In this document: one piece after another, positions 1-20,985 of the stretch
How positions within the stretch are numbered: the stretch's first letter is position 1
How the letters are laid out: every line of letters begins with the position of its first letter
The notes under the pieces: model-generated
Told to the model about the DNA's origin: nothing
The model's input: the letters and a program-made list of their open reading frames with translations, nothing else
The model's database searches: none
DNA from: Candidatus Hodarchaeota archaeon
Lineage (GTDB): Archaea; Asgardarchaeota; Heimdallarchaeia; Hodarchaeales; Hodarchaeaceae
NCBI GenBank assembly: GCA_016840035.1
Contig: JAEOTC010000074.1
Span: 1-20,985, forward strand
Direction of reading: 5' to 3'
DNA length: 20,985 nt
Translations under genes and position numbers: made by a program

Positions 1-406
1 TCCATCCTCTCTCCATCATCCACTCTGAAATTTCTTCCCCTTTTCGGAAGTCAACCTTATTCAATGTTTTACAATCTGTACTATCGAATTTTATCAAAAA
101 TTCGTTGTAAAGCTCGTTTACGGCTTGGATTGCTTTTTCTCGATCATCCTCATTTTCTTCTGGTATCCCGTGGAGATTTTGTCCACATTTGAGACCAATT
201 CCAATGCTACTACCAATTAAGAGTCCACAAGTTGTAGATCCTGATCCTATTGCTCCTAAGTACCCAGCTGTTGCCCATGAATTGGTTTCACGGGGTAAAT
301 TCCATAATTCTAATAACGCCTGAAGTGACGCCTCTGCACACGTATAACGATGCATTCTTCTGTATGCCTTGGTGAGAATATTATCAAATTTTTCTTGGTT
401 TGTCAT
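1..406 (-). CDS. C_GCAxxG_C_C family putative redox-active protein (partial, runs off the window start)
   Basis: Not in the ORF track. Manual translation from ATG at 406: MTNQEKFDNILTKAYRRMHRYTCAEASLQALL...GYLGAIGSGSTTCGLLIGSSIGIG...FDSTDCKTL...; open to position 1. The spaced Cys pattern (CAEA / TCGLLIG / STDC) matches the family. In-frame upstream stop at 464-466. Confidence 0.8.
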   Translation of the reverse strand, partial: MTNQEKFDNILTKAYRRMHRYTCAEASLQALLELWNLPRETNSWATAGYLGAIGSGSTTCGLLIGSSIGIGLKCGQNLHGIPEENEDDREKAIQAVNELYNEFLIKFDSTDCKTLNKVDFRKGEEISEWMMERGW

Positions 407-2222: not shown

Positions 2223-5216
2223 TCACCCGATTTTGTTCGAATCAGATTTTTGATATCGAGATAATTTAATAAGTTTTCTAGATTTTTTTCTTCTTAAACC
2301 AGAATAAATTACGAATAACGTCATCATTAATAATGAGGACGGCCCAGTTGCAGGTTTGCTGGTTGATGGTATAGTGGGATTTTCTGTATAACTTACGATG
2401 CTAAATAACTCATCAGAAATATCAGTAGCATTCAATCCTTCTGAACAAAAGGCAATAACTTTGATCATATAAAAAGAACTTGAGGGAAATGTCCTTATGT
2501 CCCAGACATATTCAGTTCCGACAATATCTTCCTCTAACATAGTCCAAGTGGTTCCTGCATCAGAGGAATAGTAAATTGAATACTTAATGGAATGGAAATG
2601 AGTATCGTGTGATGGGATCCAAGTTATTGTGATCATATTTTCAAGAATTTCCCTACCATTTGGAGAAATTATTGTAGGGGGAAGTAGTGCATGCTCTTCT
2701 GTAAAAAATGGTTTGACAAGAGGATAGTTATCCTGGTTTCTTGCAGACCCAGCTAGAATATAAGGCTTATCAACTATACCATCAGCATTAACATCTGGAT
2801 CTACCCAATCATCCCAGTAATTGTGGTTGAAGTTGTTACTAATGCTTTGGCCCAAACTTGAATCACGAGCTTGGTAAGTACTCCCTGGGTTATTACCCAC
2901 GAAACTATTCCAAGAAATAATATTGTTAAAAGCATAATCGGAGATAGCTATTCCTTGTTTCTGATTATTGGATATAATATTGTTGATGATAAAATTAGAA
3001 CTACTCGGTTCATCAGGATACCAAGGATAATATTGGCCTATTTCAATTCCAACACCATTGTTACTAGCAATTGTATTGCTGATGAGAGTATTGTTTCTTG
3101 AGTCATCGAGATATATTCCCCCTTCGTCATTATTGATGATCGAGTTATTGGTAAAAACATTATTGTGTGAGAAAACTAAACCAATTCCCGTGTAAGTGTT
3201 ATTCGTTATAAGATTAGCAGTAAAAATGTTACAACACGATCTTCGTAAGTCTATTCTACTAAAACTGATTATGTTATTACTAAAAGTATTATTCCATGAT
3301 TCAGATATAGATAAGTCAGAATTGTTCACATAAGTATCAATGATGAGACTATAATTACATAAATTGAGTTTGATATTATTCTTACTAACAATACTGTTGT
3401 TAATAGTAATATTACACGAATTTTGAATTTCCATTCCCTCATTATTATTGTTCATAACAGTGATATTGGTAAAAAAGATATTGAATGAATTATTCAACCA
3501 TATACCATCAGAATTATTCATGAATGCAAGGTCTATGAGATCTACTTCAGCTGAATTATCTATCCACACTCCATATCCAATATTTTTACATATTTCATTG
3601 TTTTCAAGTGTAACATTAGACGAATCCAATAAAGAAATCCCCGTGAATTTGTTGTAATTGAAGACATTATTATGAATGTTCAATTCCTTACAAAAAGCTG
3701 CTATTAATCCGTATGAAGTGTATGTGATAATTTGCCCCGTGATTTCTGCATCTGAAACATTAACCAATATAATTTGCTCTGCATTTGGAGGAATTGTACC
3801 ACCAATTGTATTTTGCCAATAAATCAATGGTCGTCCGTTAATCAGGTTATCCACAATTGAAGATTGCAGCCAATCCTCAATTTTTTCCCCATAAAAAGCA
3901 ATACCCTTACCCATTAGGTTATTTGCCTGGATAATATTGTTAGAGGAACGAAATAAAGCAATCCCGTAATTGCTGTTATTGGTGAATGTATTATCATGAA
4001 TATTAAGCTCCTTACAGAAAGCTACTAATAATCCACAAGAAGCGAATGAGATATTCTGGCCTGTGATTTCAACACCAGTAACATTAATGAGAATAATTTG
4101 CCCAGCGTCTGTAAGAATGGAACCACCTCTGATACCTTCCCAGAAAATTAGAGGTTTACCATTAACAAAGTTATCTTCGAAACCATTTTGTGAATATGTT
4201 TCAAAAGCTTCTCCATCAATTATTAGACCATTCCTTGTCAGGTTATTCGCAGATAAAGTGTTATTCCACGACTCAGAAAATCCAATTCCTCCTTCAGAGT
4301 TATTAATAATTAAATTGTTGAAAAGAGAATTGTTGTAGGAATGATAAAAGGATATACCTACTCCAGTATTGTTGGATACTATATTATGGGTAAAAGTATT
4401 CTGGTTTAGATAGCCTAAGTATATCCCATGATCAGTATTGTCAAAGATTGTATTATTGATATAAGAAATATGGAATGAACCCCCTGTGTTTATTCCACCA
4501 TAGAAATTTTCATGAACAAAATTATCAATAAGACTAATGTTACATGATCCTGATAATTTTATTCCACCATCTCTTCTACTTCCAGAATGACCACCTCCTC
4601 TTCCACTTTGACAGTTGTTAGAGACTGAATTTGAAGTAATAACGGTTTTGTTCGATTCTTCTAACCATATTCCAACAACACTGTTATTAAAGATTGTATT
4701 ATGAGAGATGGTACAATTAAATGACCCCCGGAAGTATACAGCATTCCCTCCATTCATGATCGTGTTATTAGTTATATTAATGTTGTATGAATGAGAAACC
4801 CAGATTCCCCAATAGCTGTTAACTACAGTGTTGTTAATTAGCTTACAATGTGCAACATTAGATAAAATCAAACTTTGGCCCATGTTCTTCAGGAAACAAT
4901 TGGAAATTTGAAAATGGAGGTCAACATTCCAAATGTTTATTCCATACCAAGTCTCTGAGACAATATCTAACCCATCTATGATATAAGGGTTTGATGCAGT
5001 TCCGTTTCCTGTCCATCCTTCACTATTTGCTTTTGCTATAAACTCAGCATTGGAATGTATCTCAATAGCTGGACTAGGAACATTTTGAATAACAGAACTT
5101 GAAAAAAGGGAACTTTGCTTAGGAATATCAGCTGGTGAGTTTATTATCTCAACTTGTGGAGTCAGAGTACTGGAAAATAAGACTATTAACAAGAGCATTA
5201 TGAAATTCTTAATCAT
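2223..5216 (-). CDS. Cell-surface right-handed parallel beta-helix protein (NosD/PbH1/pectin-lyase-like) with C-terminal FN3/Ig-like domain and membrane anchor
   Basis: Signal peptide; GWTGNGTASNPYIIDGLDI N-cap; many GIxLxxSxNNxIxxNxIxNN repeats; NYWDDW...D.PY...DNYPL C-cap; PPTIISPNG...ITW...YSIYYS..GTTW FN3-like domain; Thr/Ser/Pro linker, hydrophobic segment and basic RRKKSRK tail; abundant N-x-S/T sequons. Confidence 0.9.
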   Translation of the reverse strand: MIKNFIMLLLIVLFSSTLTPQVEIINSPADIPKQSSLFSSSVIQNVPSPAIEIHSNAEFIAKANSEGWTGNGTASNPYIIDGLDIVSETWYGINIWNVDLHFQISNCFLKNMGQSLILSNVAHCKLINNTVVNSYWGIWVSHSYNINITNNTIMNGGNAVYFRGSFNCTISHNTIFNNSVVGIWLEESNKTVITSNSVSNNCQSGRGGGHSGSRRDGGIKLSGSCNISLIDNFVHENFYGGINTGGSFHISYINNTIFDNTDHGIYLGYLNQNTFTHNIVSNNTGVGISFYHSYNNSLFNNLIINNSEGGIGFSESWNNTLSANNLTRNGLIIDGEAFETYSQNGFEDNFVNGKPLIFWEGIRGGSILTDAGQIILINVTGVEITGQNISFASCGLLVAFCKELNIHDNTFTNNSNYGIALFRSSNNIIQANNLMGKGIAFYGEKIEDWLQSSIVDNLINGRPLIYWQNTIGGTIPPNAEQIILVNVSDAEITGQIITYTSYGLIAAFCKELNIHNNVFNYNKFTGISLLDSSNVTLENNEICKNIGYGVWIDNSAEVDLIDLAFMNNSDGIWLNNSFNIFFTNITVMNNNNEGMEIQNSCNITINNSIVSKNNIKLNLCNYSLIIDTYVNNSDLSISESWNNTFSNNIISFSRIDLRRSCCNIFTANLITNNTYTGIGLVFSHNNVFTNNSIINNDEGGIYLDDSRNNTLISNTIASNNGVGIEIGQYYPWYPDEPSSSNFIINNIISNNQKQGIAISDYAFNNIISWNSFVGNNPGSTYQARDSSLGQSISNNFNHNYWDDWVDPDVNADGIVDKPYILAGSARNQDNYPLVKPFFTEEHALLPPTIISPNGREILENMITITWIPSHDTHFHSIKYSIYYSSDAGTTWTMLEEDIVGTEYVWDIRTFPSSSFYMIKVIAFCSEGLNATDISDELFSIVSYTENPTIPSTSKPATGPSSLLMMTLFVIYSGLRRKKSRKLIKLSRYQKSDSNKIG
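3600..4247 (-). repeat. Internal tandem duplication, 2 x 324 nt (108 aa), inside the beta-helix gene
   Basis: NNL..G....G......Q....DN..NG[KR]PLI[FY]W....GG.I...A.QIIL.NV...EITGQ.I...S.GL..AFCKELNIH.N occurs twice. The Ala codons of AFCKELNIH lie at 4020-4022 and 3696-3698, exactly 324 nt apart. Confidence 0.85.
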
Positions 5217-8716: not shown

Positions 8717-9967
8717 TTATTCATCCTTAGTAAGGTGAAATTGAGATACAAAATCAGAAAGTTTTTCACTTAATTCTGCTAGCGATTGAGCTAATTCAGT
8801 AAGTTCTCCTACTGATGCCGATTGCTCTTCTGTTGCGGCAGCTACTTCCTCAGAACTGGCAGAAAACTCTTCAGCTTGAGTAGCGAATTCTTGAAGTCTT
8901 TCTTGAAGTTTAATTACATTTGTTCCAATATTTGCTGTAACTGCATCTGTTAATCCGCTAATATCATTAGCATATCCTTTCGTTTCCTCTGCAAGTCTAC
9001 GGACGTTCTCTGCAACGACAGAAAAACCTCTTCCATATTCACCAGCTCTCGCAGCTTCAATACTTGCATTCAATGCTAAAATATTTGTTTGACCAGAGAT
9101 ATCTCCAATCATTTCGACCGTTGTTTCTATGTCGCTTGTTGTTTTATCCACTGCCTCAGTCATACTCTTAACATTTTGGATACCTTGAATGGCATATTCG
9201 GACTGTGTTGATGCACCACGACTAATTTGTTGAACTGTTGCCGTAATTTCTTCAGATAGGGCATTTACTTCTTCAGTAGTAGCAGCTAAGTTCTCTGATG
9301 AATCGGCAATAATCACTGTGGACTTTTTTACTGAAAGCATGGTACTTTCTAAATGCTCTAAAATTTCATTAATCATCTTCATAGACGAACCGAATGTTGA
9401 ATCCTTGAGAATAGATTCATCTTTCACTCTGATAGAAAGATTATTTTGTTTCACTTCCGTATTGAGCTTAGAAATTTCATTAGTATATCTATCTGTCAAA
9501 GTATATATGTTGAAAAAAGTGGAAAAAATAAGTACTACGTTCATGGGTATGATAATTAGTGGAGAGTAATTGGAATTATTTGTGCCTAGGAAAAGTTTGT
9601 ACACTTCCAATCCTGTCCTTCCCATTCCAACATTGAATATTATTATTATGACGACTACAATATGCAAGGTGATTTGGAATCTGTAATCATTTCTTCCTAA
9701 GTATGTGAGAGAAATTAAACAGATTACGGTTGTAAAAGTTGATAATAATAAATAAGAGAATAACCAAGCTTCAAAAATTATCCCAAAATATGACCCTTCA
9801 ATGTAGGACATAATTAGGATGAAAGCACAATAAGGAAGGACTAAGAGCTCCGCTACTCGTGTTATACTTTTAAGAATCTCTTTTTTGTGAGATGAGAGGA
9901 GCCCTTTTCGTAAATCACTCAATAGATTCACCGTGTTTAAAGAAATATTGATGGAGACAAATAGCAA
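8717..9967 (-). CDS. Methyl-accepting chemotaxis protein-like receptor with multi-TM N-terminus
   Basis: Hairpin tip [43 protein letters not shown]; methylation-like EE pairs ([25 protein letters not shown]); about 4 TM helices. Start uncertain (TTG 9967); minus-strand TTTTTATAAT at 9986-9995 would fit a leaderless transcript. Confidence 0.88.
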
Positions 9968-10927: not shown

Positions 10928-11818
10928 ATGAATAAAAATGATTTACGAGCATGGATTGTAATAATTGTCATTCTTTTCATAGCTATCTTTCTTGCATTTG
11001 CGGGTAGTCAGGGAGGGGCATATTTTCTTGATTTCATTCCTCTATTTGCACTTGGGATTGGCCTAATTTTTGTAATACAGTGGATTGCTTTTATTCCAGC
11101 CTATATTTATCGTACAGAGAAGTTTTTTGACTTAATTGGTTCACTAACTTATTGTTCGGTAATAATTTTGTTGGGTTTTTTTTCACCAAATTTGGATCTT
11201 CGCTCCTTTGTCATTATAGTTTTGGTTTTAATTTGGGCTATCCGCTTAGGGACTTTTCTATTCAGAAGAGTATTGAAAGCAGGGGAAGATGAACGATTTA
11301 GGGATATTAAACAATCTGGCTCACGTTTTTTAGTTACTTGGACAATTCAAGGATTATGGGTTAGTTTTACACTAGCAGCTGCCATGGCGGTTCTTACAGT
11401 GGATTACCGCGAGAAATTCGGAATCATTGGGATTATTGGATTAGTAATTTGGATTATTGGGTTCATGTTTGAAGCAATCGCAGATTATCAGAAGAATCAA
11501 TTCAGATCTTTACCAGAGAATAAAGGGAAGTTTATACAAACTGGATTATGGTCGATTTCTCGTCATCCAAATTATTTCGGAGAAATTGTGCTTTGGATTG
11601 GGATAGCAATTATTGCCCTCCCTACATTATCTGGATGGAATTTAATAACGCTTATATCCCCAATATTTGTAACACTTCTATTAACAAAAGTAAGTGGCGT
11701 ACCATTACTTGAGAAACGTGCTGATGCAAAATGGGGAGATCAAGAAGATTACATCGCTTACAAGGGCAATACTCCTGTGCTAGTTCCAAAAATAAGATTT
11801 GGGAAGAAGACAAAATAG
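10928..11818 (+). CDS. DUF1295 family membrane protein (steroid 5-alpha-reductase/ICMT-like superfamily)
   Basis: EKFFDLIGS, WAIRLGTFLFRR...EDERF, W.IQGLWV, EAIADYQK, GKFIQTGLWSISRHPNYFGE, SGVPLLE motifs. Confidence 0.92.
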   Translation: MNKNDLRAWIVIIVILFIAIFLAFAGSQGGAYFLDFIPLFALGIGLIFVIQWIAFIPAYIYRTEKFFDLIGSLTYCSVIILLGFFSPNLDLRSFVIIVLVLIWAIRLGTFLFRRVLKAGEDERFRDIKQSGSRFLVTWTIQGLWVSFTLAAAMAVLTVDYREKFGIIGIIGLVIWIIGFMFEAIADYQKNQFRSLPENKGKFIQTGLWSISRHPNYFGEIVLWIGIAIIALPTLSGWNLITLISPIFVTLLLTKVSGVPLLEKRADAKWGDQEDYIAYKGNTPVLVPKIRFGKKTK

Positions 11819-12832: not shown

Positions 12833-13558
12833 ATGATTAAGAAACCAAAAAATTCTTTGGAAGTGAGAATTATAAGCAATGTTATTGAAGTACAAGATTT
12901 AAAGAAGGTTTATTCATTAGGGCAAGTGAAAGTAAATGCTTTATCCGGAATAAATATGAAAGTGCCTTCTGGTGACTTTGTAGCAATTTTAGGCCCTTCT
13001 GGCTCAGGTAAAACGACATTATTACATTCATTAGGCGCTTTAGATAAACCCACTTCTGGAAGTGTGTTAATTTTTGGTTCTGATCTTGCTTTATTAAATG
13101 ACAGTCAGCTTACTGAGTTTAGAAGGAAAATTGGATTTGTTTTTCAATTTTTCAATTTAATTCCCCGGTTAACTGCATTAGAAAATGTAGAATTGCCTTT
13201 ATCAATTGTAAGGGTTCCTAAAAAGGTTCGTAGAAAGAGAGCTATTAAGCTCTTAGAAACTGTTGGATTAGGAGATCGAATTCACCACAATCCTTTGGAA
13301 CTTAGCGGAGGAGAACGTCAAAGAGTGGCTTTGGCACGTGCGCTTGCAAATAAGCCTGATTTCTTATTAATGGACGAACCAACAGGAAATATTGACTCTA
13401 AGACGGCTTCTGAGCTGCTTGAGATAATAACTACCCTCAACCGAGAAAATCTTGTAACTACCATCATGGTAACTCATGATCATGAGATTGCAAAGTATGC
13501 AAAGCGAATTCTGCATTTTAAAGATGGCTTAATACTGAAAGAGGAGGTAAATTCCTAG
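12833..13558 (+). CDS. ABC transporter ATP-binding protein, LolD/MacB/SalX family
   Basis: Walker A GPSGSGKT, IGFVFQFFNLIP, signature LSGGERQRVA, Walker B LLMDEPTGN, VTHD switch. Confidence 0.96.
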   Translation: MIKKPKNSLEVRIISNVIEVQDLKKVYSLGQVKVNALSGINMKVPSGDFVAILGPSGSGKTTLLHSLGALDKPTSGSVLIFGSDLALLNDSQLTEFRRKIGFVFQFFNLIPRLTALENVELPLSIVRVPKKVRRKRAIKLLETVGLGDRIHHNPLELSGGERQRVALARALANKPDFLLMDEPTGNIDSKTASELLEIITTLNRENLVTTIMVTHDHEIAKYAKRILHFKDGLILKEEVNS

Positions 13559-14826
13559 TGTTTCTTAGTGATATTATCTCATATGCAATTGGCTCTATTC
13601 AAAGAAGGAAAGTACGTAAAGGTTTAGCTTTACTTGGTGTAACAATAGGTATCGCAGCTATCATTTCTTTAGGATCATTGAGTCAAGGATTTCGTGGAAT
13701 TGTTGCTATGCAATTTGAGCAAGGATTCTCTTCTGACACTATCATTTTGACAACTGGGAGTCTTGATTTCCTAAATACTGAATCTGATTTCGAATTATAC
13801 GTAAATGACACAGAATTAATTGATCAAATCGATAACGTGAGCCTTTCTGTTGCGCTTATTCAAAAAAATTGTTTCGTTCATCTTGGAGACGAGGAATTAT
13901 TATTACCTGTGATAGGAGTAGATTTTTCAAGGTACAAAGAGCTTTTTCCAAATACTTTCCTCACTCAATCAGGATCTATTAGTGATTTTCCTACTAATAA
14001 TACAGTCATTCTGGGAAAAAGAGTTATTGATCCATGGAACAATGGCACCTTACTTGGTACGATTTCTGATGAAATCAATATCACTTTTACAACCAGGGAT
14101 GGGTTTAATGTAGAAAATAAGACGTATACTGGTAATATTGAAGGAATTTTAGATGAGATTGGTGGATCTACAATAGGAGGGCCTACAGATATGGGTATTT
14201 ATATTCCTATTAGTCACGCAATCAAATTCTTTGATACCACCCGTTGTGAAACAATCCTAGTTAAGCTAGTAGAAAGTAATGAACAAACAATTAAAAGTAC
14301 GTCCGATTCCATAGAAGATCTTTTTGCGGGACAAGTTCAAGTTGTAACACCCACTTCAATAATCAATGCAATTTCGGAAATTGTAACTACTATCGAACTC
14401 TTTCTGATTGGAGTTTCTGCAATTTCTTTAGTTGTTGCGGGTGTAGGGATTATGAATATTATGCTTACTTCGATTATGGAAAGAACCCGTGAAATAGGTA
14501 TATTAAAATCGATTGGGATGAAAAAAGAGGTCGTTATTCTAATTTTTCTAAGTGAAGCGCTAATCATTGGGATTCTTGGATCAATATTCGGAATAATTGT
14601 TGGTGGATTTTTAGCAATTGCAGTGGATGAATTTGGTTTACTAACAGGTTTAGCAAGCGGTACTAAAGAGACTTTTATCGGAGAAGTATCAATTTCTCCC
14701 ATATTCAACTCAGGATTACTAATAGGATCTGTAATATTTGGTTTGATCGTAAGCATAATTTTTGGATTATACCCAGCATGGCGAGCTGCCAAATTAGATC
14801 CTGTCGAGGCATTAAGATATGAATAA
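13558..14826 (+). CDS. ABC transporter permease, MacB/FtsX (type VII) family
   Basis: TM1 LLGVTIGIAAII, large extracytoplasmic domain, ISLVVAGVGIMNIMLTSIMERTREIGILKSIG, GLYPAWRAAKLDPVEALRYE. TAGTG stop/start overlap; GAGGAGGT RBS at 13541-13548. Confidence 0.95.
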   Translation: MFLSDIISYAIGSIQRRKVRKGLALLGVTIGIAAIISLGSLSQGFRGIVAMQFEQGFSSDTIILTTGSLDFLNTESDFELYVNDTELIDQIDNVSLSVALIQKNCFVHLGDEELLLPVIGVDFSRYKELFPNTFLTQSGSISDFPTNNTVILGKRVIDPWNNGTLLGTISDEINITFTTRDGFNVENKTYTGNIEGILDEIGGSTIGGPTDMGIYIPISHAIKFFDTTRCETILVKLVESNEQTIKSTSDSIEDLFAGQVQVVTPTSIINAISEIVTTIELFLIGVSAISLVVAGVGIMNIMLTSIMERTREIGILKSIGMKKEVVILIFLSEALIIGILGSIFGIIVGGFLAIAVDEFGLLTGLASGTKETFIGEVSISPIFNSGLLIGSVIFGLIVSIIFGLYPAWRAAKLDPVEALRYE

Positions 14827-14839
14827 AGGAGTTTTCTGA

Positions 14840-17140
14840 ATGGGAAAGTATATTCAGCATTTGAATAGCAAACACAAGGATATAGATGTTGGAAATAAAG
14901 CTAAAAATCTTGCATTCCTTTCTAAAAACCGATATACTATTCCGAAGACCTATATATGTGGATTCAAGGCTTTTCGTGATTTTAGGGATGATAAAAATGT
15001 ATTATCTCAAATTAAAAGAGAATTAAACACAATTATTGATGAAAATACATCTTATTCAATCCGATCATCTGCAAGTGTTGAAGATACTTCAGATTTCTCT
15101 TATGCAGGACAATTTGAAACTTATTTAAACATAAAAGGTGTTGATTCAATTTTAGCCTCAATTGTCAAGATATGGGACTCAATTTCGGGTAAGCAGGCAA
15201 TTGCGTATGGAGAAGAGACCGGTCAATCTGAAGTAGAAATGGGAGTGATAATTCAAGAGATGGCTTGTCCACTTTTCTCTGGTGTTGTATTTACTCGAAA
15301 TCCCATAAACGGTCTCAATGAAATAATTATTGAATCAGTTGACGGTTTTGGTACACAACTAGTTCAGGAAGGTATCACACCTGAGAGGTGGAAATATAAG
15401 TGGGAAAGCTGGACTGAGAAGCCTTCAAACGAAACAAAAAAGTTTGAGGTTATTAGAAACGTAGTCCAGGAAGCCATAAATATTGAGAAAGAGTATGGAA
15501 AACCTGTTGACTTAGAATGGGTTTTTGATGGAAAAGATATTTATTGGCTGCAATTACGCGAGATTACTACTCTCAATAGTACAAATATTTATTCTAATCG
15601 TATTTCAAGAGAATTTTTGCCTGGAATTATTAAACCTCTTGTTTGGTCAATCAATATCCCAGTTGTTAATAGTTCATGGAAACAGTTATTCAAAGAGTTA
15701 TTGGGTAGAAAAGCTGAGTCGATTAATATTAATAATCTAGCAAATCAATTCTATTTTCGCGCCTACTTCAATATGGGAGTAGTTGGTGATATATTTGAAC
15801 TCCTTGGTATGCCAAGAGATGCGTTGGAAATTTTAGCAGGTATTGAGTTTTCAAATGAAAATAGGTCGTTATTTCGACCAGGTCCCCAAACTATCCAATT
15901 TCTTCCAAATATATTACGCTTTATTATGCAAAAAGCTATGTTTGAAAAGAATATTGAGAAATTTCAAAGAGATTTTCAATTAAAGTATAAACAGGTTAAG
16001 AAAGCACTCATAGAAGATCTCAACGAGGAAGAGACGTTAGGAATAATAGAAAAGCTCATTGATCTGAACTCCACGGCATCTTATTATGTTATCATGGCCC
16101 AATTGCTTAATAGCCTCTTTAGTATGGTTTTAAAAACTCGTCTCAAAAAAGAAAATATTTCAATTGAGGAATTTCCAGAGAATCAACCCCTTCTGGAATT
16201 TGTTGATCCAAGATTTCATCTAGCTAAATTAAATAAACTTTACAAGAAGCAATCAGATTCCGAAAACCTATTTAAAGAAGAAAATATCGATCCTGAATTC
16301 TTAAGAGAGCTTAGATTATTTAAGCAAAGATTTGGCCATTTGAGTGATAGTGGTAACGATTTTACAACTCCTTCATGGAATGAACAACCTGAGTTAATTA
16401 TTGAGATGATAAAGGCAACAGAACAAGGTTTAAAACCTAGTTCTATATCATTAAATCATGATTTACTTAAAAAGAAGGGAAATTTAATATTTTTTTATAA
16501 AAAAGCTGCTCGTTATCGATTATATCGTGAAACAGTGACTTTTCTGTATACTTATGGTTATCGATTATTTCGTCCTGCTTTCTTACATCTAGGATCCTTA
16601 TTAAGTAAAAAGAATCTTCTCAACGATTCTGATGATATTTTTTATCTTAAATATCCTGATATCAAAAAAATAATATCTGATCCTAGTGTGGCCTCTAAAT
16701 TACGAAAAAGAGTTAGAACTACAAAAGAAGAGATAAAAAAGTATGGGAACGTTCGATTACCTGAAGTTATTTTTGAAGAATTGCCTAAAGCAATGTTAAT
16801 GTCGTTAGATGTAAAAGAAGAACTTTATGGAGTGCCTACTTCAAAAGGTTATCATGTTGGCCCTGTAAAGGTAATAAAAGGAGTATCAGACTTTAAAAAA
16901 GTTACCAAAGGTGATATAATTATTATTCCTTTTTCAGATATTAGTTGGACGCCCTTGTTTGCCAAAGCTAGTGCTGTGATCTCCGAATCTGGCGGTATAC
17001 TATCTCATTGTTCTATAGTTGCTAGGGAGTATAGGATTCCTGCTATTGTTTCAGTAAATAATATTATGACAACATTAAGAGATAATATGAGAATTGCAGT
17101 AGATGGATTCAATGGAAAAATTCAAATCATACGAGATTGA
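14840..17140 (+). CDS. PEP-utilizer family ATP-dependent dikinase/phosphotransferase with RPH/PigC architecture (ATP-grasp, central substrate domain, C-terminal phospho-His swivel)
   Basis: VGNKAKNL, IRSSASVED...SYAGQFET, VIIQEM, SGVVFTRNP, DLEW, WLQLREIT; C-terminal GGILSHCSIVAREYRIPAIV (His723, codon 17006-17008). No PEP/pyruvate TIM barrel follows the His domain. AGGAG RBS at 14827-14831. Confidence 0.92.
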   Translation: MGKYIQHLNSKHKDIDVGNKAKNLAFLSKNRYTIPKTYICGFKAFRDFRDDKNVLSQIKRELNTIIDENTSYSIRSSASVEDTSDFSYAGQFETYLNIKGVDSILASIVKIWDSISGKQAIAYGEETGQSEVEMGVIIQEMACPLFSGVVFTRNPINGLNEIIIESVDGFGTQLVQEGITPERWKYKWESWTEKPSNETKKFEVIRNVVQEAINIEKEYGKPVDLEWVFDGKDIYWLQLREITTLNSTNIYSNRISREFLPGIIKPLVWSINIPVVNSSWKQLFKELLGRKAESININNLANQFYFRAYFNMGVVGDIFELLGMPRDALEILAGIEFSNENRSLFRPGPQTIQFLPNILRFIMQKAMFEKNIEKFQRDFQLKYKQVKKALIEDLNEEETLGIIEKLIDLNSTASYYVIMAQLLNSLFSMVLKTRLKKENISIEEFPENQPLLEFVDPRFHLAKLNKLYKKQSDSENLFKEENIDPEFLRELRLFKQRFGHLSDSGNDFTTPSWNEQPELIIEMIKATEQGLKPSSISLNHDLLKKKGNLIFFYKKAARYRLYRETVTFLYTYGYRLFRPAFLHLGSLLSKKNLLNDSDDIFYLKYPDIKKIISDPSVASKLRKRVRTTKEEIKKYGNVRLPEVIFEELPKAMLMSLDVKEELYGVPTSKGYHVGPVKVIKGVSDFKKVTKGDIIIIPFSDISWTPLFAKASAVISESGGILSHCSIVAREYRIPAIVSVNNIMTTLRDNMRIAVDGFNGKIQIIRD

Positions 17141-17150
17141 GTTTTAGTTT

Positions 17151-17930
17151 ATGAATTTATTAGAAGTATTAATTATAGGAATTATCGGATATCTCTTTGG
17201 ATCAATATCTTTTGCACGTCTCATAACGAAACTACTTGCTTCAGAGGACTCTATTGACAATTTATTTCTGGATATGGAAGATCAGGATCTTTCACAACTT
17301 ATGACTGGTTTTGGAGCCAATCGTGCAGCAATGGTTCTTGGTGCCAAATGGGGAATTGCAATCGGTCTTTTAGACATGCTAAAAGTCGTAATTCCTATGA
17401 TATTTGTAGGTTTCTTATTTTTAGATGAGAGTTATTTCTTGATTGTGTCCATTACAGGCCTAATTGGCCACAATTGGCCTCTTTATTATCGTTTTAAGGG
17501 AGGCAGAGGTTTTTCAGTAATTTATGGTAGCTTTTTTGCCATAGATTGGATTGGAGCTATCATAACTGTTATTCTTGGTTTACTATTTGGAATGGGTATT
17601 TTTGGAACCGTGATGATTGGTTATGTTGGATGGTTATGGCTAATGATTCCCTGGTTCCTCCTGAGAACCAATGATTCTGCATTTTTAATTTATGCCATTT
17701 TAATCAATATCATCTTCATTATAGGGACGATTCCTGAAATTCGTTTAGGAATGAGATTGAGAAAAGCCGGTAAATTTGCGGAATACCAAGAGAAACTGTT
17801 TCAATCTTCACCTAGATGGAGAGGCATGAAGAAAATGAATGATAGGATCCAATCGCCAATAGTACGCGGGTTTTTGGTCCTAATTGGTTTAATTCTCCTT
17901 TTCCCTGTATATTTTTTCATCCTTGTATAG
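17151..17930 (+). CDS. plsY: PlsY-like (DUF205) glycerol-3-phosphate acyltransferase family protein, divergent, copy 1
   Basis: GYLFGSI, LDMLK, GHNWPLYYRFKGGRG (PlsY motif 2). Motifs 1 and 3 are non-canonical. Starts 10 nt after the dikinase stop. Confidence 0.8.
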   Translation: MNLLEVLIIGIIGYLFGSISFARLITKLLASEDSIDNLFLDMEDQDLSQLMTGFGANRAAMVLGAKWGIAIGLLDMLKVVIPMIFVGFLFLDESYFLIVSITGLIGHNWPLYYRFKGGRGFSVIYGSFFAIDWIGAIITVILGLLFGMGIFGTVMIGYVGWLWLMIPWFLLRTNDSAFLIYAILINIIFIIGTIPEIRLGMRLRKAGKFAEYQEKLFQSSPRWRGMKKMNDRIQSPIVRGFLVLIGLILLFPVYFFILV

Positions 17931-19391
17931 ACTTAAGCCTTCAACCGTTTTCTTATAGTAATTATGAAAACAATCAGCAAATTAATTATTGTTACAACCA
18001 CAATTATTGGGATAATAATTTGAAGAACATCTAAATCATAAGTTGGGACGATGATATTGGTCACAGCAATACTTTCTGAACCAATATATTTGTAGAATAA
18101 TACTGAAGTGAAATGACCAAATATTCGTACTGAAAAAGTAGTAGTAATTGCCATATAAGCTTGGATTCCAGTTTCGGTGAAATAGCACTGGGTTTGATTT
18201 ATTTTTATACCAGTAAGATATAAACTCATACTCGACGGAACTCTGGGTTTTAGAATGATTGTCGAGGTCAATGTTTTATTTGTAAGTTCATATTCAACTA
18301 ATTCGACTTTTTTATCACAGATATATTCTTTAGATGCTAAGGTATCTAAAACTTGAATCCAGAGATCCCAATCTCTTGAGATAATGGGTTCTCCCAATTT
18401 ATTGCCGATTGTAAGTTGATATTCTGTCATATTATAAGAAACATTGATTCTGCCTGTATTTGTGTCATTTGGGAATGAAACAATCCTTATTGTGAAATTA
18501 GAGTTACGAGGGGGAATTGTATCAAAAATAGGTTGGAGTGTGAAGTTATCTATGCGAACTTGAGTCAAATTCGCGATATCTTCCATATCCATTCCTCCTG
18601 GTAACTCCATTCCCTGAGTAAAATCGGGTCTTTCTGGTCTTTGAACAACTCCGAATTCTAGATCCTGTCCTTCTTCCACACCATAGGATTGTAATGTGGC
18701 ATTACTGGTCTTGATTAGACTAATATTGAATGTAAGTACAAAAATTAAAATGAATTTAGTCTTAATCTGAACTTTTTTCAAGCTTAGCCCACACAGGAAA
18801 GAATGGATTATTTACATATTGATTCTTAATTTAATTATCTTTAAATTTTTACTATCATTTGAAGATTATGTAATACTTCAATTTCTATGATTCAGGCTAT
18901 TCAAAAGAAAGAGAAGGGAGCATTGCAAGAATGAGGAAGAAAGTAACAAAGCTAAAAACACCAATTATAATTCTAATTCGTCCTAAGCTGAGAATATAAT
19001 CTTCTATTGCTTTCATTCCCCTCCATCTTGGAGTAGATGTAAGTAAGGACTTCCTATAGTCTTCATATTTTCCTTCCCTTCGCATTTTCATATCTTCCTG
19101 TATTTCTGGAATAGCTGAAATAAGAAAGATTACGTTTGAAAGAACAGCATACAAGAAATAGAGTAGATCATTAGTTCTTAGGAGGAACCAGGGAATCATT
19201 AGGAAATAACCCAATGGATAAGCAATCATTATATCCCCCAGAAGGAAAATTCCAATTAAGAATCCAAAAACATTGGTAGTGATTGCTCCGAAAAAATCTA
19301 TTACGAAATAGCTCCCAATAATTACTGAAAGACCTCTACCTCCCTTAAAACGATAATAAAGGGGCCAATTATGGCCAATTAGGCCTGTGAT
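17451..19391. repeat. Inverted near-identical DNA patches shared by the two PlsY-like genes
   Basis: 17451-17522 vs reverse complement of 19320-19391: 67/72 identical. 17640-17675 vs reverse complement of 19167-19202: 34/36 identical. Each contains a 23-nt exact match. Confidence 0.85.
17933..18781 (-). CDS. Hypothetical exported protein with signal peptide and C-terminal TM anchor
   Basis: MKKVQIKTKFILIFVLTF leader; mature part begins ..SYGVEEGQ; several N-x-S/T sequons; C-terminal IIIPIIVVVTIINLLIVFIITIRKRLKA. No family recognised. Confidence 0.75.
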   Translation of the reverse strand: MKKVQIKTKFILIFVLTFNISLIKTSNATLQSYGVEEGQDLEFGVVQRPERPDFTQGMELPGGMDMEDIANLTQVRIDNFTLQPIFDTIPPRNSNFTIRIVSFPNDTNTGRINVSYNMTEYQLTIGNKLGEPIISRDWDLWIQVLDTLASKEYICDKKVELVEYELTNKTLTSTIILKPRVPSSMSLYLTGIKINQTQCYFTETGIQAYMAITTTFSVRIFGHFTSVLFYKYIGSESIAVTNIIVPTYDLDVLQIIIPIIVVVTIINLLIVFIITIRKRLKA

Positions 19392-19703
19392 TGCAATTAT
19401 TAAATGATATTCTTCTTGAGGATATAAAATACCTTTGAATATAATCATGGGTAGAATTACTTTAAGCATATCGAGAAATCCAATAAATAGTCCCCATCTT
19501 ACACCTAGAACAACAGAAACACGATCTCCTCCATATCCTGTTAGAATTGTACCTTTTTGTTCCTGATTATTGATTTGCATTGTATATTTCAAGTCTTCCA
19601 GAGATTTTTCTGATGCAATCAACCTACTTATTAAACGAGAGGAAGATATGGAACCTATTAAGTAACCAATAATTCCAGCAAGACCAGAAATCATTATCTC
19701 CAT
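18897..19703 (-). CDS. plsY: PlsY-like (DUF205) glycerol-3-phosphate acyltransferase family protein, divergent, copy 2
   Basis: GYLIGSI, LDMLK, GHNWPLYYRFKGGRG; colinear with 17151..17930 (shared LMIPWFLLRTND, IPEI, PRWRGMK). Confidence 0.8.
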   Translation of the reverse strand: MEIMISGLAGIIGYLIGSISSSRLISRLIASEKSLEDLKYTMQINNQEQKGTILTGYGGDRVSVVLGVRWGLFIGFLDMLKVILPMIIFKGILYPQEEYHLIIAITGLIGHNWPLYYRFKGGRGLSVIIGSYFVIDFFGAITTNVFGFLIGIFLLGDIMIAYPLGYFLMIPWFLLRTNDLLYFLYAVLSNVIFLISAIPEIQEDMKMRREGKYEDYRKSLLTSTPRWRGMKAIEDYILSLGRIRIIIGVFSFVTFFLILAMLPSLSFE

Positions 19704-20465: not shown

Positions 20466-20985
20466 ATGATAGATATATTGATATTCTCATTTTTGATGTT
20501 ATTACTTTTTTTTAGCGCCTTCTACTTAATCGCTTTGAAACAAGGTATCTACAATACAGTCGATATCGCCTATGGTACCTCCTTTATTATCATTGCAGTC
20601 TACTCAATAATCATGAGTGATAACGGTTTAACATTAAGGAAATTATTAATTACCGCCCTCTTAGTATTTTGGGGAATTCGTATTGCTTATTTTCTAACCA
20701 TAAGAAAATATGGAAAAGATCCAATAACAAATGAAGATAAACGGTTCAAAATCATGCGGGATAGATGGGGAAAGAGCAGTCTTTGGAAGGGGTTCTTCTT
20801 CCTTTATCTTACACAAGTATTTCTTGTTCTTATAGTCTCCTTACCAGTTTTAGTTGTTAATTATTTTAGTGGTTCTCAAGAGTCTACAGCTCTCGAAATA
20901 GTAGTCTTGATATTAATTTTCATCGCGATTTTAGGGGAAACTTTGAGTGATTTTCAGCTCTACCAATTTAAGAAAAAGTCAACGA
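20466..20985 (+). CDS. DUF1295 family membrane protein (partial, runs off the window end)
   Basis: Not in the ORF track. Manual translation from ATG 20466: MIDILIFSF...NTVDIAYG...LVFWGIRIAYFLTIRKYGK...EDKRFKIMRDRWG...YLTQ...SLPV...GETLSDFQLYQFKK; open to the window end. Starts 21 nt after the upstream stop. Confidence 0.88.
   Translation, partial: MIDILIFSFLMLLLFFSAFYLIALKQGIYNTVDIAYGTSFIIIAVYSIIMSDNGLTLRKLLITALLVFWGIRIAYFLTIRKYGKDPITNEDKRFKIMRDRWGKSSLWKGFFFLYLTQVFLVLIVSLPVLVVNYFSGSQESTALEIVVLILIFIAILGETLSDFQLYQFKKKST

Follow-up and report, generated by a model that had tools for sequence, protein, structure and literature searches.

The DNA analysed here, a 20,985-nt contig of the Asgard archaeon Candidatus Hodarchaeota (hereafter the window), carries a gene block (Table 1) whose conserved core appears to combine an RPH-type dikinase with a PlsY-fold membrane protein as one two-part enzyme; in many other lineages the two form a single polypeptide. 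The link between the dikinase and the PlsY-like protein is strongly supported. The module is very unlikely to be the route by which the cell makes its phospholipids. Tentatively, and with somewhat less than even confidence, we propose that the dikinase phospho-activates a membrane-partitioning molecule, that the PlsY-like protein processes it, and that an ABC transporter exports the product. We did not find a published study of any member of this dikinase/PlsY-like family. The split archaeal form with an ABC transporter, the deletion of the block in a congener, and the tetrapyrrole gene context are new.

Table 1. Features of the gene block, in window coordinates.
Feature	Position	Strand	Basis
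ABC transporter ATPase, LolD/MacB/DevA-like, 241 aa	12833..13558	+	Pfam PF00005, 124 bits
Type VII ABC permease (MacB/LolC/FtsX-type), 422 aa, GTG start	13558..14826	+	PF12704 + PF02687
RPH-type swivelling-histidine dikinase, 766 aa	14840..17140	+	PPDK_N 142 bits, PEP-utilizers 69 bits
Codon of His723, predicted phospho-carrier	17006..17008	+	Invariant S722-H723, alignment A1
PlsY-fold membrane protein 1, 259 aa	17151..17930	+	PF02660 (G3P_acyltransf), 69 bits
282-aa secreted/anchored protein	17933..18781	-	Translation; no family match
PlsY-fold membrane protein 2, 268 aa	18897..19703	-	PF02660, 52 bits
Accessory block, full extent	13090..19647	.	Absent from same-genus genome G207

The ORFs of the ABC ATPase, the FtsX/MacB permease, the dikinase and PlsY-like protein 1 are intact. 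As the original prediction described, the four genes are tightly packed, with a 1-nt overlap followed by 13-nt and 10-nt gaps. The ATPase/permease junction reads cc-TAG-TG, so the stop codon and the GTG start share one base. The ribosome binding sites described before the permease and dikinase genes are also present: GGAGG lies 8 nt upstream of the permease GTG and AAGGAG lies inside the 13-nt gap. We did not find a clear one in the 10-nt gap upstream of PlsY-like gene 1. Judged from spacing only, the four genes are probably co-transcribed. The second PlsY-like gene had been overlooked; its product is 51% identical to PlsY-like protein 1. Between the two PlsY-like genes lies the gene for a 282-aa protein, whose translation has a signal-like N-terminal segment and a C-terminal TM anchor. 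This protein has no Pfam or NCBIfam match and no homolog in 80 related loci, and its gene is inside the block deleted in the congener.

Rosetta-stone fusions, together with near-universal adjacency, support the idea that the dikinase and the PlsY-like protein act together. About 40 of the best 120 dikinase homologs are proteins of ~1000 aa that combine PF02660, PF01326 and PF00391 with the PlsY-like part at the N-terminus, and the cyanobacterial PlsY/PEP-utilizer fusions that the original prediction mentioned are real. A survey of fusions and gene neighborhoods found conserved linkage. The PlsY-like protein is fused with or near the dikinase in 73/80 genome loci (49 fused, 20 within 500 bp, and four within 3.5 kb) and present in 53/80 metagenome loci with the dikinase. 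The 73 loci span Bathyarchaeota, Heimdallarchaeota, Chloroflexota, Acidimicrobiia, Thermotogaceae, Saccharibacteria, and ~50 cyanobacteria. All five Asgard genomes that have the dikinase have a PlsY-like protein fused or nearby. A few dikinase orthologs on adequate contigs are without a PlsY-like neighbor (e.g., locus L136). Several PlsY-like paralogs per dikinase recur (the window and loci L027, L033, L034, L043, and L135), which fits a specificity or transfer subunit.

The dikinase consists of an ATP-grasp domain (aa 5-241), an all-helical central substrate domain (aa 266-635), and a phosphohistidine swivel domain (aa 658-764). Pfam and the AF2 model agree with the predicted domain order and with the lack of a PEP/pyruvate barrel. 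His723 is within a GG-I-L-S-H motif, invariant in 16 family members (alignment A1), which aligns by phmmer with the His-bearing GG-L-M-T-H motif of RPH-Lm, where the catalytic residue is His825 (PMC4844700). RPH-Lm (5FBS, 5HV1; NF041857) is the best match both in sequence (phmmer to 5fbs/5hv1, E 1e-43) and in predicted fold (AF2 model to 5HV1, full length, E 4e-32), and the two have the same domain order. They differ in being ~18-19% identical and in the central domain; in the phmmer alignment the ends alone align and ~300 central residues of the dikinase are left unaligned. This domain, the site of substrate phosphorylation in RPH (PMC4844700), is strongly conserved within the dikinase's own family (alignment A1). 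The dikinase falls below every NCBIfam equivalog cut-off, including RPH (NF041857, 206 vs. 999) and the PigC-type profiles (NF052631, 175 vs. 1300; NF052632, 169 vs. 1350). Unlike RPH-Lm, the window-type dikinase occurs in obligate linkage or fusion with a membrane protein. We know of no characterized RPH-type enzyme that is.

The prodiginine ligases PigC, HapC, and RedH share the RPH-type architecture and act on pyrrole pigments. They are a precedent for activation followed by transfer, as phosphorylation activates a carbonyl oxygen and the phosphate leaves in the condensation (PMC13534948). PigC, however, performs both steps in a single soluble protein and has no PlsY-fold partner. Phenylphosphate synthase and HpeHI, two-component aromatic dikinases (PMC12167813, PDB 9GOJ), likewise contain a swivelling-His dikinase that is divided into accessory subunits or combined with them, and phosphorylate a small hydrophobic molecule with ATP to give AMP + Pi. 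They are, in contrast, soluble and catabolic with no membrane partner, and only the ATP-grasp part matches the window dikinase.

Both PlsY-like proteins exceed the PF02660 cut-off of 24 bits (Table 1) and are below the TIGR00023 cut-off of 137.2 bits (59.9 and 44.7 bits for proteins 1 and 2). Canonical PlsY of bacteria and some Asgard archaea score 115-182 bits against PF02660, compared to 52-70 bits for the dikinase-linked copies. The AF2 model of protein 1 (pLDDT 91) has its only significant Foldseek matches to PlsY (5xj5-5xj8, TM 0.76-0.78, prob 1.0). The proteins share the seven-helix fold and the N-terminal Y-L-x-G-S-I motif with the PlsY of Aquifex aeolicus (aaPlsY; PDB 5XJ5-5XJ9; PF02660, TIGR00023), whereas a beta-hairpin insert (aa ~37-52) and a C-terminal helix/TM segment are extra in protein 1. 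Proteins 1 and 2 are sisters in the tree (support 100/95), and protein 2 is a recent paralog of protein 1. A single branch separates canonical PlsY from the dikinase-linked proteins (88/87; 89% of bootstrap trees).

In aaPlsY, H92 and the GG(R)G loop form the phosphate hole for the acyl-phosphate, and single mutations at S35, N37, R45, H177, or N180 cost >80-90% of the activity (PMC5700162). Both window copies keep the phosphate hole (His92 and the Gly-rich loop 3, K104-A107), reading G-H-N-W-P ... F-K-G-G-R-G. They do not keep the acyl carbonyl binder Thr41 (N and D), the oxyanion stabilizer Asn37 (G in both), the G3P clamp (S35 to M/L, R45 to M/V, K104 to R/R, and N180 to E/E) or the 2-OH binder H177 (T/A). 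R45, H177, and N180 are kept in 0/19 dikinase-linked sequences and are kept in the canonical sequences of the same alignment, including those of some other Asgard genomes. R183 is likewise never kept in the linked proteins, which have either lost S35 or carry T in its place. H92 and the GG(R)G loop are retained in the split clade, to which both window copies belong. The fused clades have T or R for H92 and M, Q, or A for K104; thus, the family as a whole does not preserve a uniform acyl-phosphate site. The family-invariant PlsY residues are the Gly scaffold and one Lys only, and the former G3P/motif-3 region has conserved acidic residues (P-E/D). As in PlsY, a cytoplasmic ATP-using partner could supply a phosphorylated donor, but here the partner is a dikinase, while PlsX or FakAB supplies PlsY. 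PlsY is also essential, whereas the module is accessory.

The permease contains a MacB_PCD domain (PF12704, aa 23-239) and an FtsX domain (PF02687, aa 286-415). Its four-TM FtsX topology, with MacB_PCD between TM1 and TM2, together with a cognate ATPase is the type VII ABC architecture. The best NCBIfam match of the ATPase is LolD (246 bits vs. an equivalog cut-off of 307), and neither window ABC protein reaches the LolCDE/MacB equivalog cut-offs. The best solved relatives of the permease are the Spr0695 permease (5xu1), MacB, YtrF, and LolC/E/F. MacB, LolCDE, and DevCA take membrane-embedded lipids or lipoproteins as substrates, working from the outer leaflet, and DevCA exports heterocyst glycolipids. 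The window pair is similar to these systems in its permease, with the extracytoplasmic MacB_PCD domain, and its LolD/DevA-like ATPase, but the archaeal loci are without a membrane-fusion or outer-membrane partner. The original prediction was right to include the MacB-type pair, which is a recurrent third component of the module. It joins the dikinase/PlsY-like module in ~40% of split-gene loci, and permease orthologs are found ≤4 kb from the dikinase in 12/80, 13/80, and 4/7 loci. Archaea have three different gene orders: ABC-FtsX-dik-PlsY (window/Thor/Bathy), PlsY-ABC-FtsX-dik (G193), and PlsY~dik-FtsX-ABC (Loki). Many Chloroflexota loci also have the pair, sometimes with HlyD. Export is not obligatory, because the pair is missing in more than half of the loci and in nearly all fused forms.

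The module was found in 5/201 sampled Asgard genomes and in 0/9 congeners. In the same-genus genome G207, window position 13089 abuts 19648 and the sequence between is missing. By BLASTN, positions 1-1111 of the congener locus (L117) correspond to window 20762-19648 (80.5%), and positions 1112-1350, directly after, to window 13089-12851 (75%). The flanks of the contig share 70-80% DNA identity with congeners. The best explanation is that the block is an accessory, laterally mobile module. Its sporadic occurrence and its deletion in a congener do not fit a core membrane-lipid pathway.

In the mechanism that we tentatively prefer, the dikinase would load His723 from ATP, giving AMP + Pi, and then phosphorylate a hydrophobic, membrane-partitioning substrate, bound in its helical central domain, on an oxygen (carboxyl, carbonyl/enol, or hydroxyl). 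The phospho-intermediate would be taken up by the PlsY-like protein. By analogy with PlsY chemistry, the phosphate would leave there and the activated group would pass to an acceptor other than glycerol-3-phosphate; the two PlsY-like paralogs may serve two acceptors. The MacB-type transporter would then draw the product out of the membrane and towards the cell surface. Several points are against this mechanism: T41 is not conserved, H92 and K104 are altered in the fused clades, known RPH-type enzymes are mostly hydroxyl kinases, the ABC pair is often absent, and a few dikinase orthologs, such as that of locus L136, have no PlsY-like neighbor.

The original prediction had the dikinase making a fatty acyl-phosphate in place of PlsX/FakAB and the PlsY-like protein acylating glycerol phosphate, as a route to ester lipids or lipid anchors with bearing on the lipid divide. 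Its premise stands in part. Neither PlsX (PF02504) nor DegV/FakB (PF02645) has a match in the window or in the 87%-complete host genome, which bounds the absences reported here, and canonical PlsY was not found in that genome either. The same genome has three PlsC-type acyltransferases. The phosphate hole of the window copies would also suit this model, as would the lipase/esterase genes that recur near the module (two alpha/beta hydrolase genes in the window, GDSL and Hydrolase_4 in cyanobacteria). A clear GpsA, however, was not found in the host genome (PF01210 only 27 bits, in a 664-aa frame), and both G3P clamp and 2-OH binder, sites at which mutation removes most aaPlsY activity, are absent from the linked PlsY-like proteins. 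Furthermore, canonical PlsY is retained separately in 5/5 module-bearing bacterial genomes checked, canonical-type PlsY (166-182 bits) occurs in other Asgard genomes that do not have this dikinase, and congeners dispense with the module. The proposed route to fatty-acyl glycerophospholipids is therefore not supported. It is very unlikely that the module makes ordinary ester phospholipids, and we regard the model as a whole as highly improbable.

Doubtful, though better placed, is a lipid kinase without transfer. Here the PlsY-fold protein would be a membrane platform offering the phospho-His domain a lipid hydroxyl (for example of a polyprenol, a diacylglycerol-like lipid, or a pigment alcohol); the product, a phosphorylated lipid, would have its phosphate bound in the phosphate hole and would be flipped or extracted by the ABC transporter. 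Known RPH-type enzymes, RPH included, mostly phosphorylate hydroxyls; to our knowledge only PEP synthase and the PigC type make activated phosphates. The heavy degeneration of the PlsY catalytic site in the fused clades is consistent with such a kinase, the conserved acidic P-E/D could bind Mg2+ or dock the swivel domain, and the Loki locus is among GtrA, UbiA, and GT87 genes, typical of polyprenyl-phosphate-dependent glycosylation. Yet there is no obvious need for a separate presenting platform when the dikinase itself has a large, highly conserved substrate domain, and this model has more difficulty in accounting for multiple PlsY-like paralogs per dikinase. As far as we know, the chemistry of the PlsY fold is confined to displacing phosphate and does not extend to acquiring it. 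A role in detoxification, with the dikinase phosphorylating a hydrophobic xenobiotic or photosensitizing pigment that the PlsY-like protein captures from the membrane and the MacB-type pump expels, is improbable. The nearest solved relative of the dikinase is a resistance enzyme, RPH, and the closest relatives of the permease are MacB and pumps of the antimicrobial-peptide type. HlyD adaptors and response regulators in some bacterial loci, the accessory, patchy, HGT-like distribution, and TspO, Staygreen, and nitroreductase neighbors that fit pigment or stress handling point in the same direction. But the RPH equivalog score is far under its cut-off, a resistance kinase does not need a membrane partner, and the pump-less fused gene of many cyanobacterial genera looks physiological rather than like resistance.

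The gene neighborhoods offer candidate substrates. Divergent class II chelatase-like genes adjoin the pair in 16 loci. HupE/UreJ (eight loci) and DUF6512 (nine loci) are beside or near it, and in several bacterial loci they lie immediately upstream. Staygreen (Mg-dechelatase family) adjoins three of the loci closest to the window, TspO is found in three loci, the 'metal chelation' DUF364 in two, and amine-oxidase-type flavoproteins in six. Nostocales loci have CbiG+TP_methylase, and in the host genome a Staygreen gene is directly behind a heliorhodopsin gene. The chelatase-like, Staygreen, TspO, and HupE neighbors hint at tetrapyrroles. That the module handles these (heme, porphyrin, corrinoid, or chlorophyll-derived pigments) is an unlikely possibility, argued purely from guilt by association. 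A tetrapyrrole could be phospho-activated by the PigC-related dikinase, the most attractive option being conversion of a propionate carboxylate to an acyl phosphate, and the PlsY-fold protein could esterify it to a membrane acceptor or pass it to the MacB-type pump. Such activation is the mode of several ATP-dependent tailoring steps in tetrapyrrole biosynthesis. The ancestral donor of the PlsY-fold protein is an acyl phosphate. If true, cyanobacteria, Chloroflexota, and sediment archaea would share a hitherto unknown means of anchoring, tailoring, or disposing of tetrapyrroles.

Lipid-divide databases and papers score Asgard PF02660 matches as PlsY, i.e., as bacterial-type ester-lipid capacity (PMC6737245; discussion, PMC13400652). 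Asgard PF02660 proteins are heterogeneous, and some are canonical in every key residue. Dikinase-linked proteins in Loki- and Bathyarchaeia MAGs are annotated as 'glycerol-3-phosphate acyltransferase' with the G3P site absent. Since the host's copies and all dikinase-linked copies are without this site, counting them as PlsY is not warranted. The PlsY-fold/RPH-type dikinase pair is widespread, occurring in many cyanobacterial genera, Chloroflexota, Actinomycetota, CPR bacteria, Asgard archaea, and Bathyarchaeia. Its chemistry, either ATP-driven membrane phospho-activation or transfer with phosphate as the leaving group, would be new for both parent families. From the gene contexts, tetrapyrroles, polyprenols, and fatty acids emerge as concrete candidates for the substrate that can be tested. 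The cyanobacterial hosts of the module include cultured strains.

The four ORFs of the original prediction (ABC ATPase, permease, RPH-type dikinase and PlsY-like protein 1) lie exactly at the predicted positions. Pfam and NCBIfam upheld the domain assignments of all four proteins (see table), and none of the four reached an NCBIfam equivalog cut-off. The ATPase stop and the GTG start of the permease share one base in the sequence TAGTG, with a GGAGG upstream. The permease and dikinase are separated by 13 nt that contain an AAGGAG. The 10 nt spacing between the dikinase and PlsY-like 1 was also correct, and we did not see a clear RBS in this gap; RBSs had been claimed only before the permease and dikinase. 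A second PF02660 gene, PlsY-like 2, had been overlooked. Between the two PF02660 genes sits a 282 aa signal/anchor protein with no family match in Pfam or NCBIfam and no homolog among the related loci, which would be tied to the module by its position. Apart from these two window genes, PF02660 has no match in the genome (4.3 Mb, 87% complete), and PcrB/GGGPS had no match in this 87% complete genome. A methyl-accepting chemotaxis protein gene elsewhere in the window has many paralogs across the genome and genus. The first bases of the contig are repeated exactly on contig C153 of the same genome, and the two contigs are probably joined.

Coordinates of features in the window, on other contigs of its genome (C69, C153) and in other genomes (G) and homologous loci (L)
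Feature	Location	Strand	Remarks
Shared contig end	window 1-127		100% identical to C153:60029-60155
C_GCAxxG_C_C redox protein and NosD/beta-helix surface-protein genes	window 2-406 and 2223-5216
Methyl-accepting chemotaxis protein	window 8717-9967	-
Repeated DNA	window 8813-9301		numerous DNA matches at 65-72% (chemotaxis gene paralogs)
DUF1295, left copy	window 10928-11818		steroid-reductase/ICMT-like membrane protein
ABC ATPase	window 12833-13558	+	LolD/MacB/DevA-like (Pfam, NCBIfam)
Block deleted in congener	window 13090-19647		6.6 kb
Permease	window 13558-14826	+	MacB_PCD + FtsX (Pfam, NCBIfam)
Dikinase	window 14840-17140	+	PPDK_N + PEP-utilizers, without PEP/pyruvate barrel (Pfam, NCBIfam)
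PlsY-like 1	window 17151-17930	+	PF02660 (Pfam)
PlsY-like 2	window 18897-19703	-	PF02660; 51% identity to PlsY-like 1
DUF1295, right copy	window 20466-20984		steroid-reductase/ICMT-like membrane protein
Light-related island (L211)	C69 1338-9438
UvdE	C69 1338-2228
DNA photolyase	C69 2228-3607		followed by SDR
AMP-binding acyl-activating enzyme	C69 4565-6238
PlsC-type acyltransferase	C69 7350-8084
Staygreen/Mg-dechelatase family	C69 8098-8565	-	30 nt after heliorhodopsin
Heliorhodopsin	C69 8596-9438	-
Chelatase-like genes	L023:6725-7945; L031:1045-2064; L025:2311-3513
ATP10-like (PF05176)	L120:10338-10799; L132:3544-4140
Further Asgard PF02660 kinds (tandem arrays of family f13; type of about 80 bits in the window's genus)	G179:C6:56828-62954; G088:C106:5555-8769

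The link between the dikinase and the PlsY-like proteins is real. About 40 of the 120 best dikinase homologs are proteins of about 1000 aa that also contain PF02660, N-terminal every time. The cyanobacterial fusions put forward in the original prediction are real: they occur in Nostoc, Anabaena, Microcystis, Calothrix, Leptolyngbya and many more. A survey of gene neighborhoods bore out the linkage as conserved, with a PlsY-like protein at 73/80 loci of species-representative genomes (49 fused, 20 within 500 bp and four within 3.5 kb) and at 53/80 metagenome loci. Each of the seven genome loci without one sits on a short contig, at most about 10 kb long (3.9-10.0 kb), and in several the dikinase is broken off at the contig end. 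The metagenome loci without one are mostly contigs below 7 kb or distant paralogs (27% identity or less); at least one, L136, is a genuine exception. In each of the five dikinase-bearing Asgard genomes the PlsY-like partner is present as well, fused in two (including the Loki genome) and in the same cluster in the other three. Two further RPH-like paralogs in the window genome (contigs C9 and C4; about 25% identity) have no PlsY neighbor. Our literature searches on PlsY with dikinases, on their fusion and on RPH/PigC/acyl phosphate turned up no work on the pair. Two known folds make up this so far undescribed enzyme system. New here are the split form of archaea, with its MacB-type ABC transporter, the arrangement with two PlsY-like paralogs, the clade and residue comparison of linked proteins with canonical Asgard PlsY, the deletion of the block in a congener and the tetrapyrrole-themed neighborhood.

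The phospho-carrier His of the dikinase is intact. Both ends of the protein align to RPH-Lm (E 1e-43), which is also its best full-length fold match, and His723 falls on the catalytic-His motif. The AF2 model has an ATP-grasp domain at 5-241, an all-helical center at 266-635 and a swivel domain at 658-764. Family members share a highly conserved central domain that has no sequence alignment to RPH, which fits the view that RPH homologs keep the phosphotransfer machinery constant and vary the substrate domain (PMC4844700).

The AF2 model of PlsY-like 1 (pLDDT 91) has as its sole significant fold matches the structures of Aquifex aeolicus PlsY (aaPlsY), at TM 0.76-0.78. Canonical PlsY sequences, taken from the same bacterial genomes and from Asgard, served as the reference in an alignment of the linked copies, in which we compared the residues defined by the aaPlsY structures (PMC5700162). 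The canonical sequences, including four from Asgard (166-182 bits), retain S35, N37, N42, R45, H92, G-G-K104, H177, N180 and R183. Position 41 is Thr in the bacterial canonical copies and one of the four Asgard copies, and Ala in the other three. In this alignment R45, H177, N180 and R183 are each absent from all 19 dikinase-linked sequences. The window copies (PlsY-like 1/2) have M/L at 35, G at 37, N/D at 41, M/V at 45, H at 92, G-G-R at 102-104, T/A at 177 and E at 180. By these residues, the split clade retains the membrane-embedded phosphate hole, which binds the phosphate group of the acyl-phosphate, and has lost the G3P clamp, the 2-OH binder and the carbonyl-binding Thr. In the fused clades H92 is replaced by T or R and K104 by M, Q or A. 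Across the PlsY-like family, the invariant positions are only a glycine scaffold and one Lys. In a maximum-likelihood tree, a single branch sets the 18 linked sequences apart (88/87; present in 89% of bootstrap trees); support for the split clade is 100/100, and the window paralogs are sisters. We also considered whether Asgard 'PlsY' is non-canonical in general, and copies of 150-182 bits in many genomes of the same class rule this out. All four canonical-type Asgard copies examined retain the key residues, T41 excepted. Asgard 'PlsY' is at least five distinct kinds; its PF02660 forms include the canonical type, a 400 aa form of about 120 bits in tandem arrays, a form of about 80 bits in the window's genus, and the linked form. 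The arrays hold three to four of the roughly 400 aa proteins, which read T35/S41/H45 and lack motif 3. The 80-bit type keeps R45, H92 and K104, but not H177/N180.

As to the ABC pair, the dikinase has an FtsX-type permease no more than 4 kb away at 12/80, 13/80 and 4/7 loci in three locus sets, nearly all of the split-gene type. The order is ABC-FtsX-dikinase-PlsY in the window, Thorarchaeota SMTZ1-83, Bathyarchaeota and L130, PlsY-ABC-FtsX-dikinase in the Asgard genome G193 and L132, and PlsY~dikinase-FtsX-ABC in Lokiarchaeota. The neighborhood is kept but the order is shuffled, which argues for a functional, but facultative, tie to the module. Among solved structures, the permease is closest to MacB, an antimicrobial-peptide pump, YtrF and LolC/E/F. 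The redox and NosD genes near the module also occur at the Thorarchaeota SMTZ1-83 locus and may be a remnant of common synteny.

The flanks of the contig have 70-80% DNA identity to congeners, which marks it as native to the genus. On the strength of this identity and of a deletion junction within genes, we rejected mis-binning of the contig. In the congener G207, window position 13089 abuts 19648, and the junctions fall within the ABC gene and the 5′ end of PlsY-like 2; thus, the intervening block was deleted in G207. A dikinase of this type is present in 0/9 congeners searched and in 5/201 Asgard genomes sampled. Its nearest homologs, about 50% identical, come from MAGs of Thor-, Loki- and Bathyarchaeota. 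The block is accessory and is probably moved by lateral transfer. A DUF1295 paralog lies on each side of it, and DUF1295/PEMT/ICMT-type neighbors recur in archaeal loci (the window, L014, L018 and L036, including Loki and Heimdall loci). The left copy sits in the conserved flank still present in G207 after the deletion, so we rejected DUF1295 as a module member; this copy may be flank.

By analogy with PlsY and PigC chemistry, we favor a scheme of 'activate, then transfer' with phosphate as the leaving group. The dikinase would phosphorylate a hydrophobic substrate, converting ATP to AMP + Pi, and the PlsY-like partner would next bind the phosphorylated species. We favor it because the dikinase has a substrate domain of its own, because several loci have two PlsY-like paralogs per dikinase, and because phosphate displacement is, to our knowledge, the sole chemistry of the PlsY fold. 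These points weigh against a module acting as a lipid kinase only, which is the next most probable reading. A detoxification module is less likely. So is the original interpretation, in which the dikinase makes acyl-phosphate, the PlsY-like protein acylates G3P and the ABC transporter moves the product. The gene layout and linkage behind that interpretation stand, but its route to bacterial-type phospholipids in Asgard archaea, with a bearing on the lipid divide, is not supported: the G3P site is lost in 19/19 linked sequences, and all five module-bearing bacterial genomes examined keep a separate canonical PlsY (115-180 bits). The system is of real interest, but it does not speak for phospholipid synthesis of the bacterial type in Asgard archaea.

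Recurring neighbors of the pair point to tetrapyrroles or other pigments as the substrate, by association only; we clustered the neighbors from about 165 loci, many of them phylogenetically related. Divergent class II chelatase-like genes, usually directly adjacent, are of a 407 aa CbiX/CfbA-like type (11 loci) and a 340 aa HemH-like type (five loci; 60 bits against a cut-off of 125). Other neighbors are HupE/UreJ (eight loci), DUF6512 (nine loci, adjoining or near the pair and directly upstream in several), amine-oxidase-type flavoproteins (six), TspO (three), DUF364 'metal chelation' (two) and, 3-5 kb off in Nostocales, CbiG with a tetrapyrrole methylase (four). Staygreen genes (Mg-dechelatase family) lie beside the PlsY-like gene at three loci, L019, L130 and L166, among those closest to the window. 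Bacterial Staygreen homologs dechelate chlorophyll in vitro (PMC8531759, PMC11006732), and a preprint on prokaryotic chlorophyll degradation makes no mention of gene neighborhoods, kinases or acyltransferases. A single query, a chelatase-like protein from bacterial loci, had no match in the window genome. GtrA, UbiA and GT87 genes at the Loki locus suggest polyprenyl-phosphate glycosylation, and lipases/esterases in the window and cyanobacteria suggest fatty acids.

In Chloroflexota, Acidimicrobiia and others (20+ further loci), the pair is flanked by a chelatase-like gene and/or HupE/UreJ and DUF6512 directly upstream. An ATP10-like small protein adjoins the module in six loci (L120, L132, L170, L149, L197 and L201); in one of these, from G193, its gene is directly upstream of the PlsY-like gene. 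In a light-related island on a different contig of the window genome, a heliorhodopsin gene is immediately followed by a Staygreen gene, and this heliorhodopsin-Staygreen operon may be of interest in its own right.
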